This document shows, one piece after another, positions 1,329-26,927 of a stretch of DNA of 30,517 bases (its first letter is position 1; every line of letters starts with the position of its first letter). Below the pieces are notes generated by a model. It had not been told where the DNA came from, searched no databases, and worked only from the letters and a program-made list of their open reading frames with translations. A program made the translations under genes and the position numbers. The DNA is from an uncultured Candidatus Saccharibacteria bacterium (lineage in GTDB: Bacteria; Patescibacteriota; Minisyncoccia; UBA6257; WO2-44-18): contig CAYSNI010000069.1 in assembly GCA_964432465.1 (NCBI GenBank), positions 1 to 30,517 on the forward strand. Reading direction: 5' to 3'.

Positions 1329-1331
1329 TGG

Positions 1332-2840: not shown

Positions 2841-2875
2841 TACCTCAATTATACCATTTTGAAATAAAAACTGGC

Positions 2876-3494: not shown

Positions 3495-3496
3495 AT
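3239..3496 (-). CDS. small membrane protein, frame B (85 aa; SHVLED)
   Basis: Two strong TM segments, SHVLED motif, GC-rich third positions; GGAG 4 nt upstream of ATG; competes with frame A. Confidence 0.45.
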   Translation of the reverse strand: MCYALSGIEWRWPTINWSYTLRAPFLHFALAFVVAWLLLRLILIILRYFSVTPTDELRTRPYLFWLSLSVAIVSHVLEDWYLGWF

Positions 3497-3535
3497 AGAA
3501 CTCCGTTATTAAAAATCTACAATGATACTGCCACC

Positions 3536-4582: not shown

Positions 4583-5457
4583 TTCGTATAAGTATTATAT
4601 AAGGCCTCCGTATCCTTAGTCCGATCTTCACTGCCTAAAACAATAATCAGCAGAGGCTGAGTCTGGCCGGCGGACGGTGAATGAAATAATGATATCAAAT
4701 TACCGCTCGCCTCATCAATAAACCCAGTCTTACCGCCGATGAAATTCGGCTGATTCACAAAAGGATGGATGTTCCCGCCAACCTCCCGGGTAATCGCGAA
4801 AATTTCCGGATGAACGTTAAAAATGTAAATCACCAGCTTTTCCAGATCGCTGACCATTGATTGATTCAGAGCGGATAAACCGGTGGGATCAAAATAACGC
4901 GTGTTGTACATACCGATTGAAATGGCCCGCTGATTCATCAATTGAACAAACTCCTCCGTTCCCACGTATTCCGCTAACGCCACGCCCGCGTCATTACTGG
5001 AAACTTTTAAAAGCGCGCCGAGTAGTTCGCGACGGCTATAAAATTTCCCCGCAATAAGATTCCCGGCGCCTCCTTCGGTAGCGATCGCCTCCGAACTAAC
5101 TTTAACGCTGGATGTCGCGTTAATTTTTTCCAGAGCGACCACCGCGGTCATCAATTTAGTTAAGGAAGCGACCGGCCATTGCTGATTAGGATGAGAAATA
5201 AAAAATTCGTCCGTGCTGTTAATGCGCTTAACCAGTGCGGAGGCCGCGCTGATTTTTGGCACCGGCCTCTGAACAACAACGGCCCGAGGCGCCTCCGGAA
5301 TAATTGTGTCTTTCGCGCTCGCGGTGACGGTTGTAGCCTCAAGTGTGGCGGTGTAGACGACTTCGTCAGAACTACCGCGACGGGCATTACCGGCTAACGC
5401 TGAAAAAAGCACGACCAAAGAAAGAACCAGGCTGTATAGCTTATTGCGGTCGATCAT
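4576..5457 (-). CDS. D-alanyl-D-alanine carboxypeptidase (peptidase S11)
   Basis: N-terminal signal/TM; SxxK (ASLTK), SxN (SSN), KTG; probable start ATG 5457. Confidence 0.88.
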   Translation of the reverse strand: MIDRNKLYSLVLSLVVLFSALAGNARRGSSDEVVYTATLEATTVTASAKDTIIPEAPRAVVVQRPVPKISAASALVKRINSTDEFFISHPNQQWPVASLTKLMTAVVALEKINATSSVKVSSEAIATEGGAGNLIAGKFYSRRELLGALLKVSSNDAGVALAEYVGTEEFVQLMNQRAISIGMYNTRYFDPTGLSALNQSMVSDLEKLVIYIFNVHPEIFAITREVGGNIHPFVNQPNFIGGKTGFIDEASGNLISLFHSPSAGQTQPLLIIVLGSEDRTKDTEALYNTYTKW

Positions 5458-5998
5458 TTTGAGGATTGCGCAGTGCTTCAATTAGTTGACGGAACTTATC
5501 ATACTCCGGAAGTTCGGTCAGATTGCCGATGCCGAGATGCTTCATCAAGTCCATGCTTGCGTTATATAAAAACGCGTTAGCACGCTTCGGATCCTGAGCG
5601 CGTTCAATTAGACCCCGAATCAAAAGATTGCGGAGCGTAAAGCTAGAGTTCACTCCTCTAATATATTCAATCTCCGAGCGGAGCAACGGACCGGCGTAGG
5701 TAACGATCGCCAACGTCTCCAGCGCTACCGGAGTCAGCGATTCATGCAACTCTTCTTTAATCACTGCTTCTAAAAGTCCGGCGAATTCCGGCTTGGTAGT
5801 AAGCTGAACGCGATCTTTATTTTCTACTAAAAATAATCCTCGGCTTTCTAGCTTAAGATTTTCTTTTAACACCTGTATCGCGGTTTGCACCTCGTCTACT
5901 TCAACTTTAAGAACCCCGGCAAGTTTTTTATAATCCATCGCCTCGCCATAAATAAAGAGAAGCGCTTCTATTTTTGCTATTAATTGTTCCTTGGTCAT
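5441..5998 (-). CDS. scpB: SMC-Scp complex subunit ScpB
   Basis: IEALLF, LETLAIVTY, IEYIRGVNS; adjacent to scpA. Confidence 0.95.
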   Translation of the reverse strand: MTKEQLIAKIEALLFIYGEAMDYKKLAGVLKVEVDEVQTAIQVLKENLKLESRGLFLVENKDRVQLTTKPEFAGLLEAVIKEELHESLTPVALETLAIVTYAGPLLRSEIEYIRGVNSSFTLRNLLIRGLIERAQDPKRANAFLYNASMDLMKHLGIGNLTELPEYDKFRQLIEALRNPQNDRPQ

Positions 5999-6714
5999 TC
6001 TTGATTCTCAGTCACTTTTTCTTTTTCTAAAGTAATGTCACTAAAACGTTCACCTTGGCTAACCTTCACAATGCGGTCTTTCAAAAGATGCAGGATCGCC
6101 AGAAACAGCACGATTACTTCTTTCCGCGACTTCTGCTGGGAAAGCGCATGAAAACTCTGTTGGCCGGTAAGTCTATTTAATAACTCTTCCATCTTTTCTT
6201 CAATAGACACCACCGCCTGTTTTACGGTCTGCACTTCTGGAATGAGCTGTTGTAGCAAAGTGGCCAGGTTGCGAACCGCGCTGACTAAATCACCGACCGC
6301 CAGTTCTTTCGGCGGATAAAATACGGACACGTCACCCAGTGAAGAAAGTAATTCTCGTCCGTAGGCGACGTGTTTTTTATCCCAAATCTTCTTCAGATGC
6401 TCAGCCGCTATCTTAAATTCCCGATAGAGCTTGAGCCGCCCTTCCAAATCCTGAATGTCCGCCTCTTCTTCCTTGGTCAGCTCCAACATCGGCAAGAGCA
6501 CCTTAGACTTGATTAACACGAGTTTCGCGGCTACCACCAAAAAATCGGCTACGATCCCCATCTCTTTCTGCTCGCCCAGTTCTTTCACGTAGCGCAAAAA
6601 GTCGGCGGTCACATCCGCTAAACTGATTTGGGTAATCTCCAACTGCTTACCTTCGATCAACTCAAGTAACTTCCCGAGCGGACCAGTGAATTTTTCTAAT
6701 TTAACGTGGTACAT
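5995..6714 (-). CDS. scpA: segregation and condensation protein A
   Basis: FTGPLGKLLELI, ADFLVVAAKLVLIKSKVLLP, FLAILHL. Confidence 0.95.
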   Translation of the reverse strand: MYHVKLEKFTGPLGKLLELIEGKQLEITQISLADVTADFLRYVKELGEQKEMGIVADFLVVAAKLVLIKSKVLLPMLELTKEEEADIQDLEGRLKLYREFKIAAEHLKKIWDKKHVAYGRELLSSLGDVSVFYPPKELAVGDLVSAVRNLATLLQQLIPEVQTVKQAVVSIEEKMEELLNRLTGQQSFHALSQQKSRKEVIVLFLAILHLLKDRIVKVSQGERFSDITLEKEKVTENQE

Positions 6715-6741
6715 ATGATTATGACTTATGACTCATGACTT
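6715..6741. repeat. 7-bp tandem array at 3' end of four-helix-bundle gene
   Basis: ATGATT ATGACTT ATGACTC ATGACTT. Confidence 0.75.
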
Positions 6742-7106
6742 ATTACTTTTCCTTTAAGACTTTTCTTGAATCCACCTAATTGATCGTTAATGGAAGACAG
6801 CCGGAGGAAAAACTCAGAAAACTCACGGTCCGAAATTAATTTAATGTCTTTTAAAATATCCAAGCAAGCAACGGTCTCGTTTAGAGAGCCTAATGCAATG
6901 TTAAAAAAGTGATTCATGTCTTTATCTGAATGCTTACCACTTCCTTCTGCAAGGTTAAGCGCTATTGATAATGAAGAACGCGTTATCTGACTTCCTATAT
7001 CATACCTGTATTCTTGTGGCATTTTTTTCACTAAAAACATAACTTTAGCAAATACTTTCTTTGCGTCTTTATATACCTGCCACTCTAAGAATCTAAATTT
7101 TTTCAT
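6726..7106 (-). CDS. four helix bundle protein (23S rRNA-IVP/Avd-like family)
   Basis: FRFLEWQVY, SQITRSSLSIALNLAEGSG, FFNIALGSLNETVACL. Confidence 0.88.
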   Translation of the reverse strand: MKKFRFLEWQVYKDAKKVFAKVMFLVKKMPQEYRYDIGSQITRSSLSIALNLAEGSGKHSDKDMNHFFNIALGSLNETVACLDILKDIKLISDREFSEFFLRLSSINDQLGGFKKSLKGKVISHES

Positions 7107-7145
7107 AGTTATCTGTCATCTGTCATCGGTTATTTGTTATAGGTC
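7105..7145. repeat. degenerate 7-bp tandem array at 5' end of four-helix-bundle gene
   Basis: ATAGTT ATCTGTC ATCTGTC ATCGGTT ATTTGTT ATAGGTC. Confidence 0.7.
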
Positions 7146-8345
7146 ATTAAGCGCTCCGCGCGTGTAGACATTAGAAGGGCTCCAGATCATCCACCCGCCA
7201 AAAAATTCTGGACTATTAGAAGCGGCATCCTCCCAGGCCTTAATCTGCGCGCGCACTTTCTCCGCGTCGTAATCCGCTCCTATATCAAAGTCCTGGATCC
7301 ATGGCCTTAGCTTGCCGATAGGAGTTGTTGAAGCGACAACGGCTAATTTTTCCGCCCGCGTCAACGCGGTATCCATAGAATATTTTACTACTTCATAAGG
7401 ATACGCGGCTGGATTTTGAAGGCCGATAAAGCCGGCAGCATAGTGAGAAGGATAAGTCATCGGCGCCACGGCATCAAAGCTCGGCAAGGCATATTCCAGA
7501 TGCTGACCGATGCCCAGCCCGTCAGTGTTAATCGTAGTTAACCCGAAGAGATCGGCTGATATTGGCGCCGACGGAATCTGATTACGGACGTACGCGTAAA
7601 AATCCCGCATCACATTCACTTTCAACGTTGTCTCGTCCCAAACCGGATATTTTATGTCACTCATTTTGCCGTCAGAAGCAAAGCGAACGTAATCAAAATT
7701 CGCCTCATCAAAGCCGCGCGACAAAATCTCATTCGCGACCGCGATATTATAATCCCACACTTCTTTTGACGAAGAATCCATCCAGGCTAACCCCTTTCTA
7801 TCTTTCCAAACTGCTCCGGTGCTGGAGCTGTACAAGGCCAGATCTGGGCGGGCCAGGGCCAGTCGCACATCCTGAAAAACAGAAATACGCCCGATAATAT
7901 AAATATTTTTATCATGGAGACGCTTGATCAACCGATTCAGTGTCGGCATCCGAATCTCAACCGCGTCGTACATCTTCGGCAATGCGAGATCGGTGTTATA
8001 AGCGATGTATCCTGAGTAATCTTTTACATCAATCACAATCGCGTTTAACTCGGTACTATCAATCAGATTCAGTAGATATTGCAACTTTTTTTCGCTACTC
8101 ACTGACCAGCTGGTAGCATAAATAGCCTTAATAACCTCAGGCGGATTGGAAAGTTTTGGCTGAGGGTCGATATCCGCATTTACGGGAAATTGCGCCAAGC
8201 TTGTCGTAGCGTTTTCATTTGAATAGTCAATGACAATGAAGTTTTCCGCGAATAAAAAAATACCTAAACCGATCGAGATTAACCCAACAAAAAATAATGC
8301 CGTTCTAAGTCCCATGCCGTGATAGTTTAATTTTACGCTTGCCAA
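7137..8345 (-). CDS. putative glycoside hydrolase (DUF4015-like) with N-terminal membrane anchor
   Basis: KAIYATSW, NAIVIDVKD, GFDEANFDYVRF, MTYPSHY, RPWIQDF; alternative start ATG 8315. Confidence 0.8.
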   Translation of the reverse strand: MASVKLNYHGMGLRTALFFVGLISIGLGIFLFAENFIVIDYSNENATTSLAQFPVNADIDPQPKLSNPPEVIKAIYATSWSVSSEKKLQYLLNLIDSTELNAIVIDVKDYSGYIAYNTDLALPKMYDAVEIRMPTLNRLIKRLHDKNIYIIGRISVFQDVRLALARPDLALYSSSTGAVWKDRKGLAWMDSSSKEVWDYNIAVANEILSRGFDEANFDYVRFASDGKMSDIKYPVWDETTLKVNVMRDFYAYVRNQIPSAPISADLFGLTTINTDGLGIGQHLEYALPSFDAVAPMTYPSHYAAGFIGLQNPAAYPYEVVKYSMDTALTRAEKLAVVASTTPIGKLRPWIQDFDIGADYDAEKVRAQIKAWEDAASNSPEFFGGWMIWSPSNVYTRGALNDL

Positions 8346-8433: not shown

Positions 8434-8928
8434 ATGGGTAGAACGGTACGAATTCGGGCGACGCAGATGGACGAACAGGGACGGGAATGTGTCCTGATGG
8501 TCCTGGAAAAGGGAGAGGAAAAAACAATTACTCCCACATTCGGCTTCTCCAAGGGGCCCGGCTGGGGTCTTCCGGGTGGTCGCGTGCATCAAGGTGAAGA
8601 CATGCTGGCGGCGGCCATGCGTGAATTCGAGGAAGAAACTGGTCTTACAGCGTCATTCCCGATGGATCCAGTCGTCTGCATTTTGCACAGCGAAAGCCAC
8701 GTGATCATCCTTTTTGAGCCGCTTAGCATTACCGGAGTGATCGCACCTAGAGATCGGGCCATCGTGAAGGCGGAGTGGATCCCACTCTCCTATCTAATTC
8801 CCGAGCCAGATGATGATGGAAAGCCTCAGATCCGGGCCATTCCCGACAATGGCAAAGACTATGACATTTATCGGATGCACTACCCTTTAATTCATAAGGA
8901 CTTCTCCGGACTCAAACTGGCCTCATGA
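8434..8928 (+). CDS. NUDIX hydrolase
   Basis: Full NUDIX box GGRVHQGEDMLAAAMREFEEETGL; SD GGAGG. Confidence 0.88.
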   Translation: MGRTVRIRATQMDEQGRECVLMVLEKGEEKTITPTFGFSKGPGWGLPGGRVHQGEDMLAAAMREFEEETGLTASFPMDPVVCILHSESHVIILFEPLSITGVIAPRDRAIVKAEWIPLSYLIPEPDDDGKPQIRAIPDNGKDYDIYRMHYPLIHKDFSGLKLAS

Positions 8929-16522: not shown

Positions 16523-17494
16523 ATGCTTATCGACGATGTCATTATCAGAATAGCGGCGGGCAACGGCGGCAAAGGCGCCGTCGCTTTTGAGAAGAACAAA
16601 TTCGCGATCGGCCCAACCGGCGCCCGCGGTGGCGATGGCGGCAACATCTATTTTGAGGCGGTGTCTGATATCTCCGCGCTGAGTAAATTTCGTCATAAAA
16701 AAGAATGGGCGGCAACTAACGGGCAGGATGGCCGGAGCCAGTACCGTGACGGTAAAGTTGGCTCTGATCTGGTTCTGAAAGTCCCGGCAGGCACCGTAAT
16801 CCATAATCTCGACACTCGCTACAGTGAAGAATTAGTAAAAGGCGGCGACCGCATCCTAGTCGCTAAAGGCGGCCGCGGCGGTAAGGGCAACTTTTTCTTC
16901 CGCTCACCGATCAATACTAGCCCGGAAGAGTTTGAATTTGGTCAACCGGGCGATAAATTCAACTTGCGCTTAGAACTTAAATTAATCGCTGATGTCGGCT
17001 TAGTTGGTCTGCCAAACGCCGGAAAATCTAGCCTGATCAATGAACTCACGAAAGCCCAAGTCAAGGTAGCGAACTACCCCTTTACCACACTGGAACCGAA
17101 CCTAGGCACCTATGAGAATCTGATCATCGCGGATATTCCTGGCTTGATCGAGGGAGCCTCAAAGGGTAAGGGACTCGGCACTAAATTCCTCCGTCATATT
17201 GAACGCACGCGAGTAATTTTCCATTTGGTTTCCGCTGAATCGGAAAAACCAGTTAAGGATTATAAGACGATTAGAAAAGAGCTGGGCGCTCATAATCCGG
17301 AACTTTTAGAAAAAATTGAGCACATCCTCATCAGCAAGAGCGATATGGGCAACCCTAAAAAACTGACGAAGGAGATTGCCGCGCTAAAAAAACTAAATTC
17401 AAAAGTATTGCCTATCTCCATTCACGACTGGGATAGCCTTGAGAAAGTACGGAAGATTCTGGATAAGATCGCGAAAGAGAAGGGCGGCCGCTAG
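16523..17494 (+). CDS. obg: GTPase Obg (no C-terminal OCT domain)
   Basis: Gly-rich Obg fold, VGLPNAGKSS, YPFTTLEPNLG, DIPGLIEGAS, FLRHIER. Confidence 0.96.
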   Translation: MLIDDVIIRIAAGNGGKGAVAFEKNKFAIGPTGARGGDGGNIYFEAVSDISALSKFRHKKEWAATNGQDGRSQYRDGKVGSDLVLKVPAGTVIHNLDTRYSEELVKGGDRILVAKGGRGGKGNFFFRSPINTSPEEFEFGQPGDKFNLRLELKLIADVGLVGLPNAGKSSLINELTKAQVKVANYPFTTLEPNLGTYENLIIADIPGLIEGASKGKGLGTKFLRHIERTRVIFHLVSAESEKPVKDYKTIRKELGAHNPELLEKIEHILISKSDMGNPKKLTKEIAALKKLNSKVLPISIHDWDSLEKVRKILDKIAKEKGGR

Positions 17495-18081
17495 CGGTAC
17501 AGCTTATTCTTTCGGATGTACTCCGCCACGCTTTTCGCCAAAAATGCATCCGCCTTGCCGCCCGCGGCGATTATCTCTCTTATTTTCGTGCTCGAAATAT
17601 CGCGTGCGGATATATCACGCGGGATTACCGTGCTATGCGGCGGAAGCTCCTCCGGCATTTCAAATCCCGGCCGTTCGAGAATTATAAATTTTCCTGTTTC
17701 GAAAAGCTCCTTTCCGTTCACCCAGGTATTTTTAATGGTCGCGGCCGAATCTGCTCCCACGACGAAACAAAATTCGGAATCCGGATAATACGTTTCCAGT
17801 TCCTGCTTGGTGGCATAGGTTGTGGTAAGTCCCGGACGCTTTATTTCGAGATCCGACACGCTCACTGGAATTTTCGGTAACGGAAATAATTCGCGAACCA
17901 TTGCCCGGAGCATTTCCACGCGGTGCATACCGTCGGTTCCGACAACCTTGTCCCTGCGGTCAGCCGATGGCATCACCCATATTTCATCAGCCGAAAAGTT
18001 ATCGAGGACCAGTTCGATCGCTTTCGCGTGTCCGATATGGGGCGGATTGAAAGCGCCGCCGAAGATCACGATTTTTTCCAT
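17491..18081 (-). CDS. nadD: nicotinate-nucleotide adenylyltransferase
   Basis: FGGAFNPPHIGH, FVVGADS, ISSTKIR. Confidence 0.93.
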   Translation of the reverse strand: MEKIVIFGGAFNPPHIGHAKAIELVLDNFSADEIWVMPSADRRDKVVGTDGMHRVEMLRAMVRELFPLPKIPVSVSDLEIKRPGLTTTYATKQELETYYPDSEFCFVVGADSAATIKNTWVNGKELFETGKFIILERPGFEMPEELPPHSTVIPRDISARDISSTKIREIIAAGGKADAFLAKSVAEYIRKNKLYR

Positions 18082-18090
18082 ACAATAATA

Positions 18091-18114
18091 ATAGCGCGGT
18101 TTTACCCGCGCTAT
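18091..18114. terminator. hairpin between nadA and nadD
   Basis: ATAGCGCGG/CCGCGCTAT 9-bp stem; weak U tract. Confidence 0.45.
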
Positions 18115-18121
18115 AAAGTGG

Positions 18122-19279
18122 TTACGTAATCAACATCATACGCTCGATGCCGAGCTTAGCCTTCTCGGCGATTGAACGCTGGATATGGACCGTAGTATCG
18201 GTTTCAAGAGGATTCTTGGGATCACAGCAGTCATCGCAAAGCAGGATCTCCAGGCGGTCCGTATTCAGCGAATCAAGCAGCTTTTCGAAGATATTCGCCT
18301 TCATGAAGCCGCACTCCGCCCGCTGCGAAACCGGGATGAAGGTTTTCTCCGGCAGTTCTTTCCGCAGCCGGTACACCATTCCCTTCTCGGTCGCCACGAT
18401 GAATTTCTTCACCGGCGAGATTCGAGCCCGCTCGACCATCTGCTCGGTCGAAAGAAAGAAAGCGCGCTGGTGAGGAATGATCCCCTGCTGGATTTTCAGC
18501 ATGCAGAGCGAGGCGCATCCACATTCCGGATGAATCATCAGCTCCGCGTCAGGGTTCTCAATGAGCGCCACATCAGCCGCGTCCATGCCGATCATCTCGT
18601 GCACGTAACAGCAGGCGCTCCATTCACCCTTCCTCTTTTCATATACCTCGATCAGGTCCTCCGGTACCCCCTGCTCCACCGCCTTTGCCTTCATGACGTA
18701 GCCAAGGAACTTATCAGGGAGAACAAGGATCTTCTTACCGGGATACATCTTCGCCGCGGCGACAATGATCTTGTCGGTATTCCGGGAGGTGGAGATGAAG
18801 TCACTAATCGACTTCGTGTAGGCGTCGCTGTTGATGTAGGTCACCAGCACGCCGCCGGGGTTGTTGCGCTTCCACTCTTCGATCCATTCATGATCGGTAC
18901 CGAAAACAAGCGAACAGCCGAGCGCCGCGGGCTTGTCGGGTACGAATACCCGTGTCGCGTCGCCGTTGATGATCTTCGCCGTCGCTCCCATGAAGTACAC
19001 GCTTTGAAAATCAATCCGTTCGGCGCCGATCGCCTTCGCGTGAAGGCTTAGTCCGAGCGAATCCCCGACTTTATCGGCAATCTCATGAAACTCCGGATAG
19101 AGATAGTTATGAGCGAAGATCTTTGCTTTCTTTTCTTTGGCTCTCGCCTGGATCTCGATCGCCATCTCGGCAAGTCCGTAACATCTTTCAAGCGTGTACC
19201 GCCCCGGATACAAATCTCCGGCGTACTGGTTGAAAAGCGTATACCAACGCATGGCAAGATGATCAACGACTGTATTCAC
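18122..19279 (-). CDS. nadA: quinolinate synthase A
   Basis: AHNY, GDSL, YIN, HPEC, FIVATE; three 4Fe-4S Cys (GCSL, CYVH, CGFMK); GTG start with SD AAGGAG. Confidence 0.92.
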   Translation of the reverse strand: MNTVVDHLAMRWYTLFNQYAGDLYPGRYTLERCYGLAEMAIEIQARAKEKKAKIFAHNYLYPEFHEIADKVGDSLGLSLHAKAIGAERIDFQSVYFMGATAKIINGDATRVFVPDKPAALGCSLVFGTDHEWIEEWKRNNPGGVLVTYINSDAYTKSISDFISTSRNTDKIIVAAAKMYPGKKILVLPDKFLGYVMKAKAVEQGVPEDLIEVYEKRKGEWSACCYVHEMIGMDAADVALIENPDAELMIHPECGCASLCMLKIQQGIIPHQRAFFLSTEQMVERARISPVKKFIVATEKGMVYRLRKELPEKTFIPVSQRAECGFMKANIFEKLLDSLNTDRLEILLCDDCCDPKNPLETDTTVHIQRSIAEKAKLGIERMMLIT

Positions 19280-19295
19280 ATACGCACTCCTTAAT

Positions 19296-19336
19296 GTTCT
19301 GGCCGTATTTTACCATTATTACGGCAAATAAAAAAG
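19296..19336 (-). promoter_or_regulatory. internal promoter block A (extended -10 TGGTAAAAT) for nadA
   Basis: 19/20 identical to 20536-20555; directly after a terminator. Confidence 0.65.
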
Positions 19337-19354
19337 AGGCGGTTAAGCCTCTTT
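19333..19354 (-). terminator. intrinsic terminator after NDT-NUDIX gene
   Basis: AAAGAGGC/GCCTCTTT stem, T run on minus strand. Confidence 0.7.
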
Positions 19355-20506
19355 AAGCGCTGAAAGAATCATGCCGATCGTACTCCAATCCACAAGATCT
19401 TTCGCGAAGATCTCGCGGATCGTGCAGACCTGCGTATATACCCGTTCGCCGGTCGGATCGCTCATATCGGCGCCATGCACCTCGCCGACCTGACTCTTAA
19501 ACCAGTTCATTTCTTCATCGGTCAGCTCCGCGGAAAAAAGATTGCAACAGTGGGTCAGAAGGGTCGCGGCAAGCTGCCGGGGGCCATGAGACTTGAGACG
19601 CTCCTTGCCGATCACGAAACCGGTTTCCTCATGGACTTCTTCCACCGCCACGTCGAGCGGATCCACGGCGGGATTCGGATTCGATCCGGCGGGAAGCTCC
19701 CAGACGAAACATTCATTGTTGCGCGCCGAGCTACGGAACTCCCGTCCGATCACAACTTCGTAATCAAGCAGAGTCGGTCCCCGGCGATACAGCACCACCG
19801 CGGAAGTATCCAGACGACCGATCACCGGTTCGTTGGTCTTCATGCGACCTTCGCCGAAAATCCTAATCCGGGGATGAATCATCCATATATAGACGCGTTC
19901 CTTCCTGTCGCCGACACGGAACGTCGCTTTAAGTTCAACTCCTTCAAGGACATGGCCCGCACGATGCTGCGCCTGATACCAGGACTGGAACGCCTTCGTT
20001 CTCCAGACAAAAAGCGGCACCTGTCGGGCTCCGCCCGAACGATGTGAACCGTCACCGAGGAATCTCAGGGCAGCGTCGACCGTCCCTTCAAGCGTATTCG
20101 CCTGCAGGACAAATTCTTTGCCGGCACAATGCTTCATGTAGCCTGTCTTTGGCGCATCATCCGGACAGCCGAATACCATCCAGCCCGAATGCCACAGCCA
20201 GCCGAATTCGATATTAGTGGTGAACGCGGGCATCTTTTCAAGCTCGCGGGGAACCCAGAACAGCGCACAATCGGAATGATTAAACGCGCTATGTTCCCAC
20301 TCGATCTGGCCGTCCTCGCCGCACTGGGCGGAACCGGCCCGGTCTTCCGGGACAAACACCACGCCGTCATAGCCCCGCTCTTTCAGAATCTCCAGAGCAC
20401 GCGGCCGCCATGACCCGACATCGTTCCTGCGGGGCGTCGGCCCCGCCAAAAAAATAGACCGGCTGAACTGCTCCGGCATCGGCTCGCCCGCGTAGACCAT
20501 CTGCAT
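19343..20506 (-). CDS. nucleoside 2-deoxyribosyltransferase-like domain fused to NUDIX hydrolase
   Basis: N-term IFLAGPTPR, VFVPEDR, QIEWE, FWVPR, TTNIEFG; C-term WELPAGS..VAVEEVHEETGF; SD AAGGAGG. Confidence 0.85.
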   Translation of the reverse strand: MQMVYAGEPMPEQFSRSIFLAGPTPRRNDVGSWRPRALEILKERGYDGVVFVPEDRAGSAQCGEDGQIEWEHSAFNHSDCALFWVPRELEKMPAFTTNIEFGWLWHSGWMVFGCPDDAPKTGYMKHCAGKEFVLQANTLEGTVDAALRFLGDGSHRSGGARQVPLFVWRTKAFQSWYQAQHRAGHVLEGVELKATFRVGDRKERVYIWMIHPRIRIFGEGRMKTNEPVIGRLDTSAVVLYRRGPTLLDYEVVIGREFRSSARNNECFVWELPAGSNPNPAVDPLDVAVEEVHEETGFVIGKERLKSHGPRQLAATLLTHCCNLFSAELTDEEMNWFKSQVGEVHGADMSDPTGERVYTQVCTIREIFAKDLVDWSTIGMILSALKEA

Positions 20507-20535
20507 GCATTCCTCCTTCTCTTTCAGACTGAAAA

Positions 20536-20575
20536 GTTCTGGGCGTATTTTACCAGAAAAATCGGGAAATAAAAA
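20536..20575 (-). promoter_or_regulatory. internal promoter block B (extended -10 TGGTAAAAT) for NDT-NUDIX gene
   Basis: Near-copy of block A. Confidence 0.65.
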
Positions 20576-20601
20576 GGCCTTCCAACAATGTTGGAGGGCC
20601 T
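20575..20601 (-). terminator. intrinsic terminator after pncB
   Basis: AGGCCTTCCAACA/TGTTGGAGGGCCT stem, T run on minus strand. Confidence 0.7.
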
Positions 20602-20605
20602 GTGT

Positions 20606-21850
20606 TTAAACCGGGATCAAACCGATCACCTGCCGATAGCGGGTGACCTCGTGGAGGTCGCCCATCGCCTTGGCGGGGTCATCGCTGAGCTTCACCGTGG
20701 AACGTCCGTTGACACGCGACGCTTTCACGACGATCTCCGCGGTGGGAAGTCCGAGATCGTTGGTAAGGTTGGTACCGACACCGAACGTGTGTCCGAGTCT
20801 GCCCTGGAAATGCGCGTGGAGCGCCACCATCCGGGCGGGATCCAGCTTATCGCTGAACACTGTCAGTTTATCTTTCGGATTCTCGTCGTAGCGGCGATAC
20901 CAGTTGATCATCTTCTCGCCATAGCTGAATGGATCCCCGGAATCTTGCCGGGTCCCTTTCCAGAGCTTCGCGACATCCTGATTCGCCGCGCGCAGAAAGA
21001 AGTCGGTGGTAAAGGTATCGGTCAGCGCGATCGAAAGACCACGGCCGTACATACTCCACCAGCCGTTCAGAACTTCGCGCTGAGCCTCAATCAGCACATC
21101 TTCGCTCCGGGTATCGGGATGCGCCTTCGCAAACGCGAGCGCGGCGATGACCATCGGAAGTTCGTGCGCCGACGTACCCATAGGTATGAGATCAACGTCC
21201 TTCGCGAACAGCACATTGGACGTGCCGAGCAGGATACCGGGTAGCTCCTCCCTCATCACCTCAACGACGTACTGCTGCCACGCCCGGCTAAAACGCCGAC
21301 GAGTGCCGAAGTCGCTGAACGTGAGGAAAGGCTGATGCCGGAATACGCAGATCTTCTCAAGGAGATTTTGAACACCCCGCGCGAAGACCGCCTCCTGCTC
21401 GAAGCGGGACTTTTTCCGCAAGAGTGCCCGGGAATAAAGTTCGCAGATGATCGACATTGCCAGCGTTTCCCAATACATGACCTTCGGCCACGGACCGGTA
21501 AACTCCAGACGGTAATCGTCGCCCTCTCTGATCAGTTTGTAGGGAGGAAGTTCGAGATCCCGCAAGAACTGGAGATAATCATCCTGGAACATCTTGTCGC
21601 CGTATTCGTGCGTGCCCCGCAGATAATGATATTCGCTGTTTCTCAGTCTGAGCTTCATCACATGATCAAGCTCGCGTCTCAAATCCTCTTCCGAAAAATA
21701 CTGCGCGAAAGGGATCCGTGCGCGATTGATCAGACTGAAAGTGACTTCCACATCACGATAGCGCCGGAATACCAGCTGGCCCATCGTGAATTTGTAGAAA
21801 TCGGTATCGAGCAAAGAGTTGATGATCGGTTCGTCGGAAAGCAGTTTCAA
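20606..21850 (-). CDS. pncB: nicotinate phosphoribosyltransferase
   Basis: LLDTDFYKFTM, DFGTRRRFS, GTSNV, GTSAHE, RQDSGDP, FGVGTNLTND, VKLSD; TTG start overlapping pncA stop. Confidence 0.95.
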   Translation of the reverse strand: MKLLSDEPIINSLLDTDFYKFTMGQLVFRRYRDVEVTFSLINRARIPFAQYFSEEDLRRELDHVMKLRLRNSEYHYLRGTHEYGDKMFQDDYLQFLRDLELPPYKLIREGDDYRLEFTGPWPKVMYWETLAMSIICELYSRALLRKKSRFEQEAVFARGVQNLLEKICVFRHQPFLTFSDFGTRRRFSRAWQQYVVEVMREELPGILLGTSNVLFAKDVDLIPMGTSAHELPMVIAALAFAKAHPDTRSEDVLIEAQREVLNGWWSMYGRGLSIALTDTFTTDFFLRAANQDVAKLWKGTRQDSGDPFSYGEKMINWYRRYDENPKDKLTVFSDKLDPARMVALHAHFQGRLGHTFGVGTNLTNDLGLPTAEIVVKASRVNGRSTVKLSDDPAKAMGDLHEVTRYRQVIGLIPV

Positions 21851-22485
21851 GAAACGCCTCCTTCCAAGACTTCATCAGTGCTGGAAATTACCACGCCGGC
21901 GGTCTCCATTTCAACGAGTGCGTCTTCGCCGTCGCTGGGATTGATATTGACCGCGCGGCAGGCGTCTTCGAGTAGGATGGCCTGTTGGCCATACTTCACC
22001 GCGTCGAGCGCCGTCGCCTTCACGCAATGATCTGTCGCAAGGCCGCCGATGTACATCTTCCTCACTTTCAGCTGGACCAGGCGATCGTTGAGCGAGGTGC
22101 CGAAGTGATGACCATCGAAAGCCGAGTAGCCGTCATCTATCGTACCTTCACCCTTAGTGATGATGTACAGCCAGCGATATGCGCTGGCTCCGGGTACCTG
22201 CAGATCCCTATGAAACTCGGCTCCGCGAGTGTACTGCACCGCGTGCTCCGGCCATTTGCCGCCATACAACGCGAAATGCTTCGTCACCGGCGGATGCCAG
22301 TCCCTCGAGATCATGATCGCCCAGTTATTCTGCATGGCATGAAGGATCATGCGATTCAGCGGAGCCATCACCTGGTCGCCTTCCACGACCGCAAGCGAGC
22401 CGCCCGGGCAAAAACAGTTCTGCGGATCCACGATCATCAATGCCGTATCGGACTGAAAGACCAGCGCCGGCCCTGAATTGAACAT
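21847..22485 (-). CDS. pncA: nicotinamidase
   Basis: IVDPQNCF, RDWH, WPEH, TKG, YSAF, GLATDHCV; Asp-Lys-Cys triad and metal ligands present. Confidence 0.92.
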   Translation of the reverse strand: MFNSGPALVFQSDTALMIVDPQNCFCPGGSLAVVEGDQVMAPLNRMILHAMQNNWAIMISRDWHPPVTKHFALYGGKWPEHAVQYTRGAEFHRDLQVPGASAYRWLYIITKGEGTIDDGYSAFDGHHFGTSLNDRLVQLKVRKMYIGGLATDHCVKATALDAVKYGQQAILLEDACRAVNINPSDGEDALVEMETAGVVISSTDEVLEGGVS

Positions 22486-22494
22486 GCAGCCTCC

Positions 22495-23370
22495 TTAAAG
22501 GATCGTTGCCCCTTCGTACTGCCAATCGAACTTGAGCTTGCCGTCGGGGAAGAAGATAAGATTTCTCATCTCTTCCGCGTTCGGCTGTACCGTCAGGCAT
22601 TCGTTCAGGCAGAGATTCTGCCCAAAGAGGTCAAAGACCTCCGCGCCATGCGCGAGCACCCGAAGACGGCACCCTGAATTAGTGACGAATTCCCGTATCT
22701 CTTTTCTTTGTTCAACTTTGAGATGATGCTCATTCGTCCATTCCCAGGCCTCGCGGTTCGACATCACCACCGGTTTGTTCACCGGGGTAAATGTGAGCTG
22801 GTCCACCTGGTGCGTCTTCGCGAACGCCACAAGATTCTTCAGCTTTTCAGCACTATCCACGAATCCGTTTGCGCCGATGCATGTCAGACGGACTGAAAGC
22901 CCTATTTCGTGAAGTTTCTTGATCAGTTCCGGAAGGTCGATATATTCCTTCTTATAAGGAAGGTAGACTTCGCGATTCTTCTCCGGTTCATAATGCACGA
23001 TAGAAATCGCGATTGTCGTCATACCAAGATTGCACCAGCTCCTCAGATAAGGATCATATTTCTCCGACCGCTCCGCGAATTTGATCCCGTTCGTCTGGAT
23101 CTCAATCAGTGGAAATTCATATCTCCGCATCTCTTCAAGATATCGGGTGATCTGATCCGGAAACAGCGTCGGTTCACCTTTTCCCGTGAACATCGCCGTA
23201 ATCGCGTTCTGAGCCTTCGCCAACCTGCACGCGATATGAAATCGGTGCCAATTGACCGTCGGTTCCTCGAGTAGCACGCCTTGCGGCGGGGTCATCTTGG
23301 ATACACAAAACGGACACCTCGCGTTACACGCCTCGCTGCCCGCCAGAATGCTGAATGTCTCGACTTTCAA
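22495..23370 (-). CDS. radical SAM enzyme of unknown function
   Basis: CNARCPFC (CX3CX2C), GKGEPTL, QTNG; 291 aa, no SPASM Cys set; TTG start with SD GAGGAGG. Confidence 0.9.
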   Translation of the reverse strand: MKVETFSILAGSEACNARCPFCVSKMTPPQGVLLEEPTVNWHRFHIACRLAKAQNAITAMFTGKGEPTLFPDQITRYLEEMRRYEFPLIEIQTNGIKFAERSEKYDPYLRSWCNLGMTTIAISIVHYEPEKNREVYLPYKKEYIDLPELIKKLHEIGLSVRLTCIGANGFVDSAEKLKNLVAFAKTHQVDQLTFTPVNKPVVMSNREAWEWTNEHHLKVEQRKEIREFVTNSGCRLRVLAHGAEVFDLFGQNLCLNECLTVQPNAEEMRNLIFFPDGKLKFDWQYEGATIL

Positions 23371-23424
23371 GGCGCCTCCTCTTAATACAATTCAGTTATC
23401 AAAGATCGACCATAGAGTAACACT

Positions 23425-24105
23425 TTAAAAGAATCTTTTCAACTCTATGGGCCTCTGCTCAACAAATACATAGAGCTGAGCAGGCCTGTGCTGGGCGCCG
23501 CCGAGCTTTTGACTCGTCGGCTTTATCAGTCCGAGCGCCACAAATTTCTTCCGAAAGTTTCTTTTATCGAGCTTCTTTCCCCAAATCGCTTCATAGGTTG
23601 CCTGGAGCTGACCAAGCGTGAACTTTTTAGGCAGGAGCGAAAAGACGGCGTTGGTATACTCCAACTTAGAACGTAAACGCCGGAGCGCATAGTTGACGAT
23701 CCTCTTGTGATCGAACGCAAGCAGCGGCAGCTTATTCACCGGGAGCAATGTCGGCGCCTGCAGATCCTTGGCGGATTCAAAGACAAGCTTCTCTCTGGGC
23801 ATCAGCGCGAAATAGCTCACCGAGACCGCCGGACCGCGGGGATCCCGTCCGGAGCTGTCGAACGTATACAGCTGCTCGATATACGCGTTCTTCACGCCGG
23901 TTTTGTCGGCAAGCACGCGAAGCGCGCCCTTCTCGGTCGTTTCGTTCTGAAAAAGAAAACCTCCCGGCAATGCCCACACGCCCTCAAACGGCGGGCGGGC
24001 GCGGCGGATCAGGAGCACTTTTAATTCGCCTTGATCGATCGTCAGAATTACGACGTCTACCGTCACGGCCGGAGAGAAGTAAAATTTGTCGGTATGTTTC
24101 TTCAT
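23425..24105 (-). CDS. nrtR: NrtR family transcriptional regulator (NUDIX-like + winged helix)
   Basis: VTVDVVI, WALPGGF, degenerate NUDIX box (RVLADK), EQLYTF..GRDPR, LAFDH, FTLGQLQ, DKRNFRKK, RPAQLY; start ATG 24105. Confidence 0.9.
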   Translation of the reverse strand: MKKHTDKFYFSPAVTVDVVILTIDQGELKVLLIRRARPPFEGVWALPGGFLFQNETTEKGALRVLADKTGVKNAYIEQLYTFDSSGRDPRGPAVSVSYFALMPREKLVFESAKDLQAPTLLPVNKLPLLAFDHKRIVNYALRRLRSKLEYTNAVFSLLPKKFTLGQLQATYEAIWGKKLDKRNFRKKFVALGLIKPTSQKLGGAQHRPAQLYVFVEQRPIELKRFF

Positions 24106-24109
24106 ATTA

Positions 24110-26056
24110 TTATTCGAGTTCTTTAAGCCAGGCATCCACGGCGACATCCGACGGCATGCGCCAATCGCCCCTCGGTGAAAGCGCTACCGACCCAACTTTT
24201 GGACCGTCCGACATTACCGAGCGCTTCCACTGGTTGCGGAAAAATCGCCCGACAAAAAGCCTCAACCATTTTTTAATTACCGCGCGGGGATATTTCTTTC
24301 CGAACGCCTGCTCCGCGAGAAACAGAATCTTTTTCGGCGCGCTCGCCCATCGCACGAAATGGTAGAGAAAAAAATCATGTAATTCATACGGGCCGATAAT
24401 ATCCTCGGTTTTCTGATCAATATCCTTTTTGCCCGCCCGCACAAGCTCCGGGGAGATCGGCGTCGCAATGATATCGGCAAGCACTTTCTTTGCCTTGCTG
24501 AAATCCTTTTGTGACCGCACCCACTGCACCAGATACTTCACCAGCGTCTTTGGAATGCCCGAATTCACGCAATAGTGCGAAATATGGTCACCGGTAAAGG
24601 TATTCCAGCCGAGTGCTATCTCCGAAAGATCACCCGTGCCTACCACGAGGCCGTTGATCTGGTTCGATTTATTCATAAGTACCAGCGTTCGATAGCGGGC
24701 CTGCACGTTTTCAAAGGTAATATCCTGCGTCTTTCCATTGTGTCCGATGTCTTTGAGATTCTGCGAGGCGCCTTCGGTAATATCAATAGTTTCCAGCGTC
24801 ACGCCCAGCGCTTCCGCAAGTTTGATCGCGTTGGACTTGGTACGCTTCGTAGTCGCAAATCCCGGCATGGTGTAGGCATGAATATTGTTACGAGGCAGAC
24901 CAAGTAATTCACAGGCCCGCACGGCTACCAGGAGCGCGAGCGTTGAATCCAGTCCGCCGGAAAGTCCGATGATCGGTTTTTCTTTATCCGCGTGCTCCAT
25001 GCGCTTCGCAAGTCCCGCCGCCTGAATCGCAAAGATTTCCTGCGCGCGCTTATCACGCTCGGATTCGTTGGAGGGTACAAAAGGATTCTGCGTGAGAGAA
25101 CGTTCCAGCTTCTCCGGGCTCGCGATGTCGGTATCAAATGAAATATTCCTGAACTCTTTCCTGGGCAACTCGTGCACGCCTTCCCCAAAGCTCGTCATAC
25201 GTTCCCGATCGGTCTTTATATGATGAAGGTCGAGATCGGCGTAGATGATCTGGCTTTCTCTGTCGAATCGCTCAGATTCTTTGAGAAGACCCCCGTTTTC
25301 CCCGATCAGGGCGTGACCGCTGAATACCACGTCAGTAGTGGATTCATGTACGCCACAGGACGCGTAGATGTAGCCAGCCACCGTACGGGCTGACTGCTGA
25401 GAAACCAGCTCGCGACGGTAATCCGCCTTCCCGATTAATTCGTTTGAAGCCGAAAGATTCGCGAGCACCGTCGCTCCCGCAACCGCCTTGAATGAACTGG
25501 GCGGCATCGGCATCCAAACGTCCTCGCAAATTTCCACACCAAGCGCGAATGCCGGCAGCTTTTCGGACTGAAAAATAAGATCCGCGCCGATCGGTACTTT
25601 CTTCCCGAGAATAGTTATTTCTTTCGCCAAAAGATCGCGCGAAGACGCGAACCACCGTTCCTCGTAAAATTCCTTGTATCCCGGGATGTAGGTCTTGGGC
25701 ACGAGACCAAGAATCTTCCCACCGGAAATTACCGCCGCCATATTGAATAATTTCCCCTCGCATGCGAGCGGGAGTCCCACTAATACCACCGCTTTTACGG
25801 TTTTGGAGGCATCCACGATCTCCTGTAAACTGATAAGAGATTCCTCCTGGAGCAGTTCCTGATGGAAAAGATCCCCGAGCGTATATCCAGTAATTGAAAG
25901 CTCAGGGAATACGATAAGTCCGGTCTGCTTCGCCGCCGCGACCTTTATCAGCTTAATGATCTCCTTCCCGTTCTCTTCCGGCTTCCCAAGCCAAAGCCTG
26001 GGTACCACCGCCGCTACCCTCATCAATCCAAATCTGGACAATTGGATAGTGTTCAT
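24110..26056 (-). CDS. nadE: glutamine-dependent NAD+ synthetase
   Basis: Nitrilase domain E-K-C (FPEL, VPK, EICED) plus SGGLDS, ENVQAR, GTGDLSE, ISPEL, IIGPYELHDFF. Confidence 0.96.
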   Translation of the reverse strand: MNTIQLSRFGLMRVAAVVPRLWLGKPEENGKEIIKLIKVAAAKQTGLIVFPELSITGYTLGDLFHQELLQEESLISLQEIVDASKTVKAVVLVGLPLACEGKLFNMAAVISGGKILGLVPKTYIPGYKEFYEERWFASSRDLLAKEITILGKKVPIGADLIFQSEKLPAFALGVEICEDVWMPMPPSSFKAVAGATVLANLSASNELIGKADYRRELVSQQSARTVAGYIYASCGVHESTTDVVFSGHALIGENGGLLKESERFDRESQIIYADLDLHHIKTDRERMTSFGEGVHELPRKEFRNISFDTDIASPEKLERSLTQNPFVPSNESERDKRAQEIFAIQAAGLAKRMEHADKEKPIIGLSGGLDSTLALLVAVRACELLGLPRNNIHAYTMPGFATTKRTKSNAIKLAEALGVTLETIDITEGASQNLKDIGHNGKTQDITFENVQARYRTLVLMNKSNQINGLVVGTGDLSEIALGWNTFTGDHISHYCVNSGIPKTLVKYLVQWVRSQKDFSKAKKVLADIIATPISPELVRAGKKDIDQKTEDIIGPYELHDFFLYHFVRWASAPKKILFLAEQAFGKKYPRAVIKKWLRLFVGRFFRNQWKRSVMSDGPKVGSVALSPRGDWRMPSDVAVDAWLKELE

Positions 26057-26065
26057 AATACACTA
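26047..26065. promoter_or_regulatory. candidate NrtR operator
   Basis: TAGTGT-TCATAAT-ACACTA, perfect 6-bp arms with GT-N7-AC core, overlapping the nadE ATG. Confidence 0.72.
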
Positions 26066-26094
26066 ACAGTAACGTATGATAAAAAAATCGTCAA
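26066..26094 (-). promoter_or_regulatory. promoter of nadE-nrtR operon
   Basis: TTGACG-17 nt-TACTGT, 9 nt before ATG; -35 lies inside the nadK CDS. Confidence 0.6.
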
Positions 26095-26927
26095 CCCCTT
26101 CCAGCGTCAATATCTTCTACCGTCCGGATAACCCGGCGGCAAAAGCCTGGGCGGAAAAGATCACGCTCTGGCTTCATAAGCACTATCCGAAAGTAACCAC
26201 GACCGAGAAAAGACCAGACGCGGTTATCGTCCTCGGCGGCGACGGTACCATTCTCGAAGCCGCCAGCCGCTATCAGCGTTCAAATCCCGTCATCCTCGGA
26301 CTAAACCTCGGCCATGTTGGATTCTTGGCGTCCGTCCGTGAAGAGGCGAAATTTATTAATGCACTGGCTAAATTTTTCTCCGGTAAATACTGGCTGGTGG
26401 ACAGGATGATGCTGCAGGCCAGCGTGTGGCGAAAAGGAAAGAATATTTTTAAAACAAATTCACTGAATGACGTCGCTATCCAGAATCCGATCGGTATGGT
26501 GGAGCTGGAAGCCAGCATCGAAGACCACCCCCTGCAATATATCCGTGGCACCGGCGTGCTCGTGGCTACCGCCACCGGCTCCACCGCGCATAATCTTTCC
26601 GCCCATGGCCCGATCGTGATGCCCAATATCGAATGCCTGATCCTGACCGAACTTTTTGATCACAGCATTCCCACTCCCAGTCTGATCATCGATAAAGACC
26701 GGATAATTTCAATGAAGATCCTGTTCTTCCGGAAACGCGGCATTCTTTCGGTCAGTAAGACCGGCAAACCGGCTGATCTTCTTCTGATATCGGGAGACAG
26801 CACCGTCTTCCCTCTTGAGATCGGCGATATCGTGAAGATTCGGCGCTCAAAAATGCTCGTCCGGTTCGCGGAATTGGAAAAGCACTATTTCTTTAAGAGC
26901 TTGCAGGAGAAGTTTTCGTTTCGGTAA
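26076..26927 (+). CDS. nadK: NAD kinase family protein
   Basis: LGGDGTIL, GLNLGHVGFL, LND, TATGSTAHNLSAHGP. Confidence 0.88.
   Translation: MIKKSSTPSSVNIFYRPDNPAAKAWAEKITLWLHKHYPKVTTTEKRPDAVIVLGGDGTILEAASRYQRSNPVILGLNLGHVGFLASVREEAKFINALAKFFSGKYWLVDRMMLQASVWRKGKNIFKTNSLNDVAIQNPIGMVELEASIEDHPLQYIRGTGVLVATATGSTAHNLSAHGPIVMPNIECLILTELFDHSIPTPSLIIDKDRIISMKILFFRKRGILSVSKTGKPADLLLISGDSTVFPLEIGDIVKIRRSKMLVRFAELEKHYFFKSLQEKFSFR

Follow-up and report, generated by a model that had tools for sequence, protein, structure and literature searches.

Gene and domain layout

In this study, we describe a gene of an uncultured Candidatus Saccharibacteria bacterium that codes for a two-domain protein of 387 amino acids (aa), in which an N-terminal domain related to MilB and to the nucleoside 2-deoxyribosyltransferases (NDTs) is fused to a C-terminal Nudix domain. 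The stretch of DNA analysed, hereafter the window, comprises positions 1 to 30,517 of contig CAYSNI010000069.1 (GenBank assembly GCA_964432465.1), and the fusion gene is part of a nine-gene block of nicotinamide adenine dinucleotide (NAD) metabolism at 17491..26927. With Pfam and NCBIfam, this block reads nadK, then nadE-nrtR-rSAM-pncA-pncB-fusion-nadA-nadD on the other strand (rSAM, radical S-adenosylmethionine). An earlier sequence-only reading of this DNA had proposed that a domain with FLAGP and TNIEFG motifs is joined to a Nudix domain with EEVHEETG, in a gene lying between pncB and nadA. Both statements hold: translation, the Pfam family PF15891 and Foldseek agree on the fusion, and Pfam and NCBIfam place pncB upstream and nadA downstream on the same strand. 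We consider it likely that the protein is bifunctional, combining an N-glycosidase and a diphosphatase in the turnover of NAD and ADP-ribose, and we propose it as a candidate for the still gene-less bacterial nicotinamide mononucleotide (NMN) nucleosidase.

All three motifs are present in the 387-aa protein, with coordinates verified by translation. The open reading frame (ORF) and its parts are the following:

19343..20506, minus strand: whole ORF of the predicted N-glycosidase/Nudix fusion, 387 aa plus stop codon, ATG start (ORF list)
20012..20506, minus strand: N-terminal MilB/NDT-like (PF15891) Rossmannoid domain of predicted N-glycosidase type, residues 1-165 (Pfam, Foldseek, profile)
20438..20452, minus strand: FLAGP motif, residues 19-23, after strand 1 (translation, 30-sequence alignment)
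20201..20218, minus strand: TNIEFG motif, residues 97-102, with Glu100 at nucleotides (nt) 20207-20209 (alignment, profile match to 4mcj)
19772..20011, minus strand: beta-rich sub-domain preceding the Nudix core, residues 166-245 (Foldseek coverage, DSSP strands 186-241)
19346..19771, minus strand: Nudix fold core, residues 246-387 (Foldseek matches 9b1z, 1g0s, 3o61 and 8rdz; profile matches 8wv3 and 8zr8)
19616..19687, minus strand: variant Nudix box, residues 274-297, GSNPNPAVDPLDVAVEEVHEETGF, in which EEVHEETG is residues 289-296 (translation, alignment)

Residue conservation was judged in a 30-sequence alignment of the fusion family, which also served for a full-length AlphaFold (AF2) model with a predicted local distance difference test score (pLDDT) of 91 and a predicted template-modelling score (pTM) of 0.85. 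The motif residues F19, G22, P23, E100, G102, E290, E293 and E294 are invariant in this alignment. Long plus-strand ORFs at 18185-19051, 19475-20047, 20588-21244 and 21335-22030 run antisense to nadA, the fusion and pncB, inside well-supported genes of the opposite strand; they are most likely spurious and due to the higher G+C.

Fold and active site of the N-terminal domain

The N-terminal domain matches PF15891 (Nuc_deoxyri_tr2) over residues 16-117 with 38.8 bits, against a gathering cut-off of 30 (E 1.2e-9). The NDT/MilB-like N-glycosidase superfamily, in which PF15891 falls, is the DrHyd of Aravind and co-workers. PF15891 is carried by all homologues among the matches listed, and some relatives additionally match PF05014. 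As Nudix matches swamped the fold search with the full-length protein, the N-terminal domain was modelled separately (pLDDT 87 for its own model) and searched with Foldseek on its own. The closest structure is 4mcj (E 6e-6, template-modelling score (TM) 0.69-0.76). MilB (4ohb, 4jel and 4jem) is the best characterised structural match (E 2e-4 to 1e-3, TM 0.55-0.63), which bears out the likeness to MilB suggested earlier, and DNPH1 and the classical NDTs come behind it as weaker matches. TIR domains are also weaker structural matches (E 9e-3 to 7e-2) and ThsB was reached in the profile search with the domain only at E 0.5. CD38 and cyclase structures are absent from the top 50 Foldseek matches of the domain in the PDB, and the fusion protein has no ADP-ribosyl-cyclase Pfam match at E≤0.01. 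A direct sequence search of the PDB with the fusion gave a chance-level match only, and a profile search was used instead: for this domain, 4mcj was the only significant match of the family profile (E 2.7e-5), and in the profile alignment TNIEFG pairs with TLLEMG, and FLAGP with IFLAG, of 4mcj.

Within the two motifs, F19, L20, G22 and P23 on the one hand, and T96, T97, E100 and G102 on the other, are invariant. Outside them, R26, W33-R34, E54, W70-E71, D79, W84 and R87 are invariant or near-invariant; among the arginines, R34 and R87 are invariant and R26 near-invariant, a conservation that fits a phosphorylated substrate. The E100 and F19 motif residues are retained in phage, actinobacterial and N-domain-only homologues.

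MilB carries the motif F-L-(G/A)-(G/A)-P-F-(R/K), its catalytic glutamate is E103, and its F17Y substitution moves specificity from cytidine monophosphate (CMP) to the deoxy form dCMP (PMC4081090), which documents the premise that Phe in place of Tyr favours ribo-substrates. By motif comparison, F19 is predicted to be the equivalent of MilB F17, the determinant of ribo versus deoxyribo specificity, and E100 that of MilB E103, which would place Glu100 at the catalytic, nucleophile position of the NDT/MilB fold. In the family sequence FLAGP-T-P-R, the ribo-type Phe and Glu100 are kept and the base cage of MilB is absent. We infer that the N-terminal domain would be an active N-glycosidase for a phosphorylated ribonucleotide with a non-cytosine base.

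The Nudix part resembles ADP-ribose pyrophosphatases in fold

The C-terminal ~200-220 residues superpose in Foldseek on NudF (9b1z, 1g0s and 1viq), NudK/YffH (3o61) and human NUDT5 (8rdz), with E-values of about 1e-12 to 1e-10, and many Nudix structures are matched at 2.7e-12 to 5e-10. The structural alignments comprise about 200 columns (TM 0.6-0.7 on the target) and span the beta sub-domain as well as the Nudix core; the fold class is that of the NDP-sugar/ADP-ribose pyrophosphatases with an extra N-terminal beta sub-domain. The Pfam Nudix family PF00293 is not reached by the window protein and is reached by several family members. In the family-profile alignment, the Nudix helix falls on 'ALRELEEETG' of the Bacillus ADP-ribose pyrophosphatases 8wv3 and 8zr8.

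The box reads G274-x7-D282-x6-x-E290-V-x-E293-E294-x-G296-F, against the canonical GX5EX7REUXEEXGU; both box glycines are kept, and the metal-binding E290, E293 and E294 are invariant, as is G296. The invariant residues of the beta sub-domain include E219, R221, K223, N225 and R231, and an invariant E354-R355 pair stands in a later loop. ADP-ribose pyrophosphatases have a catalytic Glu in a loop after the Nudix helix, and E354 is the candidate for this loop Glu. NudC-type NAD(H) pyrophosphatases are marked by SQPWPFPxS downstream of the box and by a zinc-binding Cys motif; a string search of the fusion protein found no SQPWPFP and no CxxC. The earlier proposal that the Nudix domain splits NAD(H) or ADP-ribose is thus narrowed: NAD(H) loses ground with the absence of the NudC motifs, and ADP-ribose is the likelier substrate, because of the NudF/NudK/NUDT5 fold and because the operon, with its nrtR gene, would be of the ADP-ribose-responsive NrtR type.

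Two other Nudix sequences lie in the window. One is in the NrtR of the window, whose Nudix box is degenerate, unlike that of the fusion with its conserved Glu residues; the other is a small stand-alone Nudix hydrolase of 164 aa with a canonical box, encoded at 8434-8928 on the plus strand, 10 kb from the NAD block. The fused Nudix domain was considered as a paralogue of either one and this was rejected, the similarity being weak and limited to the box.

The fusion is widespread

A search of 5.8 billion proteins returned 861 relatives at E≤1e-3, and every one of the best 120 of these 861 is full length, with 379-432 aa and an identity of about 45-65%. Together with the invariant motif residues, these numbers argue that the fusion is not due to chance. 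With one genome scanned per species, relatives were found in 550 species, mostly Patescibacteria (labelled Lloyd-, Yanofsky-, Jorgensen-, Harrison-, Vogel-, Falkow-, Uhr- and Moranbacteria, and Paceibacterota). Cultured carriers include Glycomyces, Dactylosporangium, Actinomadura, Spirillospora and Enhygromyxa salina, and the gene is also found in metagenome-assembled genomes (MAGs) of Myxococcota and Planctomycetota. Full-length homologues are encoded moreover by Bacillus phage G, whose gp334 (AEO93593.1) is 44.5% identical across 99% of the query, by a 485-kb uncultured phage and by three Streptomyces plasmids, and a 412-aa 'Nudix hydrolase' of Klosneuvirus has the N-domain fold in common with the fusion.

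The N-domain profile gathered 1909 clusters (50% identity) among 1.8 billion representative proteins. The best 150 of these clusters hold no new fusion partners, nearly all being the same fusion or fragments of it, and the longer relatives (421-592 aa) carry no extra informative domains. The fusion has no PADLOC and no PHROGs match. Source annotations name it 'MutT/8-oxo-dGTP pyrophosphatase' or 'nucleoside 2-deoxyribosyltransferase domain protein', names that are probably misleading. In one full-length homologue, from the Streptomyces sp. NBC_01216 plasmid (locus L089, 5983-7146; 34% identity), FLAGP is replaced by YLASA and TTNxE by AAEAW, and this N-domain is probably inactive or repurposed.

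Linkage to NAD genes in other genomes

Among 53 low-GC, Patescibacteria-type loci, 30 carry NAD genes at most 10 kb from the fusion and usually no more than 400 bp away, with gene families checked by Pfam. Their counts are as follows:

pncB: 21 of 53 low-GC loci
pncA: 19 of 53
nrtR: 15 of 53
nadE: 14 of 53
nadD: 14 of 53
nadK: 13 of 53
nadA: 8 of 53
ADP-ribosylglycohydrolase gene: 8 of 53
radical-SAM gene: 7 of 53
phosphoribosyl pyrophosphate (PRPP) synthetase gene (prs): 5 of 53

For at least 21 loci in 53, a rough binomial tail at a generous chance rate of 3% is about 1e-18, a figure that genome relatedness inflates. The commonest arrangement, [fusion]>pncA>pncB>, is found at 10 loci, and pncA is the commonest immediate neighbour. 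As gene order is shuffled among the loci, the link to NAD genes does not reflect one inherited arrangement. A protein family of ~332 aa, which has no Pfam match and whose KxDG motif resembles the one in ATP-dependent ligases, stands beside NAD clusters in the Patescibacteria loci L007, L014 (229-1227), L028 and L035.

Plasmid 2 of Variovorax sp. SRS16 (locus L091) encodes an N-domain-only homologue with 41% identity and the same active-site residues, between an isochorismatase-type cysteine hydrolase and an NAD kinase. In this cluster (1149-7395), macro, RecX, small Nudix and NrtR genes are divergent from those of the cysteine hydrolase, two further proteins, the NDT-like protein and the NAD kinase. 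The NrtR orthologue is 45% identical to the NrtR of the window, and for the two further proteins (241 and 207 aa) no match was obtained among PDB sequences. The Variovorax cluster is support from an independent lineage for the NAD link, and it agrees with the conserved neighbourhood of the 30 loci; the assignment to NAD metabolism made from the window alone is in this way reinforced.

The remaining neighbourhoods are of other kinds. Those from Actinomycetota, Myxococcota and an alphaproteobacterial MAG are uninformative, with genes for nitric oxide synthase, Der GTPase, DUF2169, SDR and TetR proteins. In the 485-kb phage, genes for a Macro domain protein and a calcineurin-like phosphoesterase lie 1.7-2.3 kb downstream of the fusion. 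RNA-ligase and 2H genes are found near N-domain-only plasmid homologues.

The NAD block of the window

The genes that surround the fusion in the window were assigned by Pfam/NCBIfam:

26076-26927, plus strand: nadK, NAD kinase
24110-26056, minus strand: nadE, glutamine-dependent
23425-24147, minus strand: nrtR, Nudix domain plus NrtR winged helix
22495-23370, minus strand: radical-SAM gene
21847-22485, minus strand: pncA
20606-21850, minus strand: pncB
18122-19279, minus strand: nadA
17491-18081, minus strand: nadD

Locus L002 has the same gene order, and the remainder of the window is chromosomal housekeeping (FtsW, MraY, ScpA/B, DnaX, Obg, tRNA-Gln). The nadA-like gene scores under the NCBIfam equivalog cut-offs (234 versus 294 bits), and nadB and nadC are absent from the whole 30.5-kb window, which suggests an incomplete or non-canonical de novo branch. 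The radical-SAM protein (22495-23370, minus strand; 291 aa) carries CxxxCxxC at residues 15-22 and shows only a weak likeness to MoaA, viperin or Tes. Counterparts with 57-67% identity are encoded in seven other Patescibacteria NAD clusters, L002, L011, L032, L035, L051, L059 and L022, in five of which the gene is directly upstream of the fusion; one idea is that the protein could serve as an oxygen-independent substitute for NadB. The G+C is 0.51-0.58 over the NAD block (18000-26000), and elsewhere in the window it is 0.42-0.51, with most values at 0.46-0.49; this fits lateral acquisition of the block or a different codon usage.

Putative regulatory elements flank the fusion on both sides:

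20581..20595, minus strand: terminator-like hairpin and T-run after pncB, directly upstream of the fusion (terminator scan, sequence read)
20533..20576, minus strand: promoter-like module upstream of the fusion, containing TGGTAAAATACGCCCAGAAC (direct repeat)
19333..19354, minus strand: terminator-like hairpin overlapping the fusion stop codon (terminator scan, sequence read)
19293..19336, minus strand: second copy of the promoter-like module, upstream of nadA (direct repeat)

The duplicated module is 44 nt long and consists of the terminator T-run followed by TGGTAAAATACGSCCAGAAC, with two exact sites in the window versus 0 expected by chance. Upstream of the fusion, a palindrome TTCTGG-N10-CCAGAA overlies a -10-like TAAAAT. 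The duplicated element may be an operator. The palindrome does not fit the published NrtR operator, a 21-bp palindrome with a GT-N7-AC core.

Proposed function and alternatives

We propose that the protein would be a cytoplasmic bifunctional enzyme of an NrtR-type, ADP-ribose-responsive, NAD operon. The C-terminal Nudix domain would convert ADP-ribose (possibly also related ADP-X compounds) to AMP and ribose-5-phosphate, and the N-terminal domain would, via Glu100, convert NMN to nicotinamide and ribose-5-phosphate. The nicotinamide would then feed the adjacent PncA, PncB, NadD and NadE, i.e. the deamidated Preiss-Handler branch, and ribose-5-phosphate could be turned into PRPP for PncB. NMN is a product of NAD-dependent DNA ligase and ADP-ribose a product of ADP-ribosyl transfer; these by-products may be handled side by side, one by each domain, rather than in sequence. 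ADP-ribose is also the effector that releases NrtR from DNA (PMC2330246). In this exact version, with the Nudix domain recycling ADP-ribose and the N-terminal domain recycling NMN, our proposal is a tentative one.

Several observations weigh against it. No NAD gene is found near the fusion in 28 high-GC loci (Actinomycetota, Myxococcota, Planctomycetota) and in 23 low-GC loci, and one Patescibacteria locus has thyA and DHFR genes, with an AlkB-like gene, nearby instead. The Nudix box has a variable residue where the canonical 'REUXEE' has Arg, and it exceeds the canonical length by one residue; in ADP-ribose pyrophosphatases, a Pro is conserved about 15 residues downstream of the box, and the corresponding P309 is not conserved in the family. 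That the residue equivalences rest on predicted structures is a further point on this side. Moreover, a HIT-domain gene directly precedes an N-domain-only homologue with all active-site residues kept on four actinomycete plasmids (L090 5564-6492, L092 5801-6489, L093 3621-4492 and L094 3424-4492; the two genes overlap in some cases). HIT hydrolases are best known for releasing AMP, and since an ADP-ribose-cleaving Nudix domain releases AMP as well, AMP rather than NMN could be the joint downstream substrate. Finally, Iyer et al. [quoted passage not shown]

If AMP were that substrate, the Nudix domain would cleave ADP-ribose to AMP and ribose-5-phosphate and the N-terminal domain would release adenine from AMP (or from ADP-ribose), giving a second ribose-5-phosphate for PRPP. 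The partners of the N-domain clade, HIT in operons and Nudix in the fusion, are both typically AMP-releasing, PRPP synthetase is present in 5 and ADP-ribosylglycohydrolase in 8 of the NAD clusters, and Macro, 2H and RNA-ligase genes are found near phage and plasmid homologues. We nevertheless regard this role on the adenine side as improbable: no adenine phosphoribosyltransferase or adenine-salvage gene recurs in the neighbourhoods, where pncA is the commonest immediate neighbour, uncontrolled AMP hydrolysis would be costly, and the known AMP nucleosidase has a different fold. The pairing with HIT nucleotide hydrolases, like the fusion itself, also suggests coupled steps, such as the sequential dismantling favoured in the earlier proposal, in which the Nudix domain would split NAD(H) into NMN(H) and AMP before the N-terminal domain converts NMN to nicotinamide and ribose-5-phosphate. 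What this would yield overall suits the neighbouring PncA and PncB, and the best sequence-profile matches include 8zr8, which we take to be the Bacillus methanol-dehydrogenase activator, an ADP-ribose-pyrophosphatase-like Nudix protein cleaving enzyme-bound NAD. A sequential action is however unlikely, given a fold of the NudF/NudK/NUDT5 class that lacks the NudC-type SQPWPFPxS and Cys motifs, and given that destroying NAD would be counter-productive in an operon that NrtR would derepress when ADP-ribose signals NAD consumption (PMC2330246).

The listing of the phage G protein agrees with a TIR/CD38-like NAD glycohydrolase or ADP-ribosyl cyclase as N-terminal domain, after which the Nudix domain would convert ADP-ribose or cyclic ADP-ribose (cADPR) to AMP and ribose-5-phosphate. 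The products would suit PncA and an ADP-ribose-pyrophosphatase domain, and the weak TIR and ThsB matches point the same way. We think this quite unlikely, because the best structural matches are mononucleotide N-glycosidases, with no cyclase in Pfam and neither CD38 nor cyclases in the top 50 of Foldseek, because PADLOC gave no match, and because a constitutive NADase in a housekeeping NAD-synthesis operon would need explaining. A house-cleaning of nucleotide pools, in which the Nudix domain would convert damaged or modified (d)NTPs or NDPs to monophosphates and the N-terminal domain would remove the aberrant base like Rcl/DNPH1, would account for the 'MutT/8-oxo-dGTP pyrophosphatase' annotations, for DNPH1 and the NDTs as structural relatives, for the locus with thyA, DHFR and the AlkB-like gene, and for the absence of NAD neighbours at about half of all loci. 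It is very improbable in our view: Phe rather than Tyr at the first motif speaks against deoxy-substrates (PMC4081090), the Nudix fold class is that of NDP-sugar/ADP-ribose pyrophosphatases with the sub-domain and not that of MutT, and the NAD linkage is strong and repeated. Least of all do we expect that the module primarily degrades ADP-ribose-derived immune signals or toxins (cADPR isomers), as a counter-defence or antidote, with its operon position in Patescibacteria being secondary. The homologues in phage G, the huge uncultured phage and Streptomyces plasmids, the N-domain fold of the Klosneuvirus protein, the Macro domain gene in the huge phage and the RNA-ligase and 2H genes around the N-domain-only plasmid homologues are in favour of such a role; the window gene, for its part, lies in a chromosomal NAD biosynthesis operon among housekeeping genes, and PADLOC and PHROGs gave no match. 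Counter-defence is plausible for the phage and plasmid copies, and less so for the chromosomal operon.

A variant of the proposed NMN hydrolysis would be a pyridine-base transglycosidase, in which the N-terminal domain converts NMN and nicotinate to nicotinate mononucleotide (NaMN) and nicotinamide. It is conceivable because NDT-type enzymes act through a ribosyl-enzyme intermediate, and we rate it as very unlikely. A precedent for base exchange is the CD38-catalysed exchange reported for NMN (PMC11903787). Together with PncA, a transglycosidase would provide a PRPP- and ATP-free route from NMN to NaMN, as a stand-in for the NMN deamidase PncC. This would suit energy-poor Patescibacteria and would make of the module in jumbo phages, giant viruses and plasmids a compact NAD-repair device.

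Significance

Each domain is from a known superfamily and the architecture is already visible in databases. In the literature, we found no functional study of the fusion family beyond the mention of AEO93593.1 (PMC9503650), and no published description of the fusion in NrtR-type NAD operons of Patescibacteria. NARP3 was also considered and is unrelated to the fusion family.

An NMN glycohydrolase activity was reportedly described in Salmonella in 1981, and the papers that we found on NMN nucleosidase/glycohydrolase name no gene for the activity. If the N-terminal domain is an NMN nucleosidase, this old orphan activity would gain a gene and a fold. For Patescibacteria, whose metabolism is minimal and salvage-dependent, our proposal, if true, would complete the map of NAD homeostasis, with NMN and ADP-ribose being returned to PncA, PncB, NadD and NadE under the control of NrtR. 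The prediction can be tested now, as orthologues with 45-50% identity are available in cultured Glycomyces, Dactylosporangium, Actinomadura, Spirillospora and Enhygromyxa, and in phage G. Furthermore, the presence of the module in jumbo phages and plasmids, and of the N-domain fold in a giant virus, sometimes beside Macro, 2H or HIT genes, suggests that it may matter for phage-host conflicts centred on NAD and ADP-ribose.

Comparison with known systems

With TIR domains and CD38/ADP-ribosyl cyclases, the N-terminal domain has in common a broad Rossmannoid class and, as predicted, a ribosyl-nicotinamide cleavage chemistry with a catalytic Glu; it differs in that TIR matches are weak, CD38 does not appear among the top 50 matches and Pfam places the domain in PF15891. 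The Nudix part resembles NudF of E. coli and Klebsiella, NudK/YffH and NUDT5 in fold, including the beta sub-domain, in its Nudix-helix Glu residues and in a candidate later-loop Glu (E354), but it is only 16-19% identical to them, lacks the box Arg, has a box one residue longer and is fused to the predicted N-glycosidase.

The uncharacterised PF15891 member BDI_0649 of Parabacteroides distasonis, whose structure is 4mcj, has equivalents of F19, W33, P53, W70-E71, D79, T97, E100 and G102. It differs from the fusion in that this Bacteroidales protein (about 175 aa) stands alone and lacks R34, E54 and R87, and the genes around it are those for the pentose-phosphate pathway, a PRK-family kinase and Rnf, with no NAD genes. 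MilB and BlsM are similar to the N-terminal domain in the F-L-(G/A)-(G/A)-P motif with its ribo-specific Phe and, by motif comparison, in the catalytic Glu (E103 in MilB). In contrast, the base-stacking Phe22 and the Arg/Lys23 of the MilB 'P-F-(R/K)' are replaced by T24 and P25 in the fusion, the fusion family has its own invariant W33-R34, E54, W70-E71 and R87, and it carries a Nudix domain and a linkage to NAD genes in place of the linkage to MilA/ThyA-like hydroxymethylases. Membership in the specific MilB/BlsM CMP family was thus rejected, as no Phe follows the Pro of FLAGP and thyA is close to the fusion at one locus only, 4 kb away.

In its overall architecture, the fusion is similar to NadM-Nudix of the Synechocystis slr0787 type, in which an NMN-handling N-terminal domain and a C-terminal ADP-ribose-type Nudix domain are combined in NAD recycling, as proposed for the fusion, and which is encoded in NrtR-controlled NAD gene clusters (PMC2330246, PMC9503650), as the fusion would be. 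The N-terminal domain of the fusion is however of an N-glycosidase fold (PF15891) and not a HIGH-motif nucleotidyltransferase, and its Nudix part has the extra NudF-like beta sub-domain. Where NadM adenylylates NMN, the fusion would break it down to nicotinamide for PncA and PncB.

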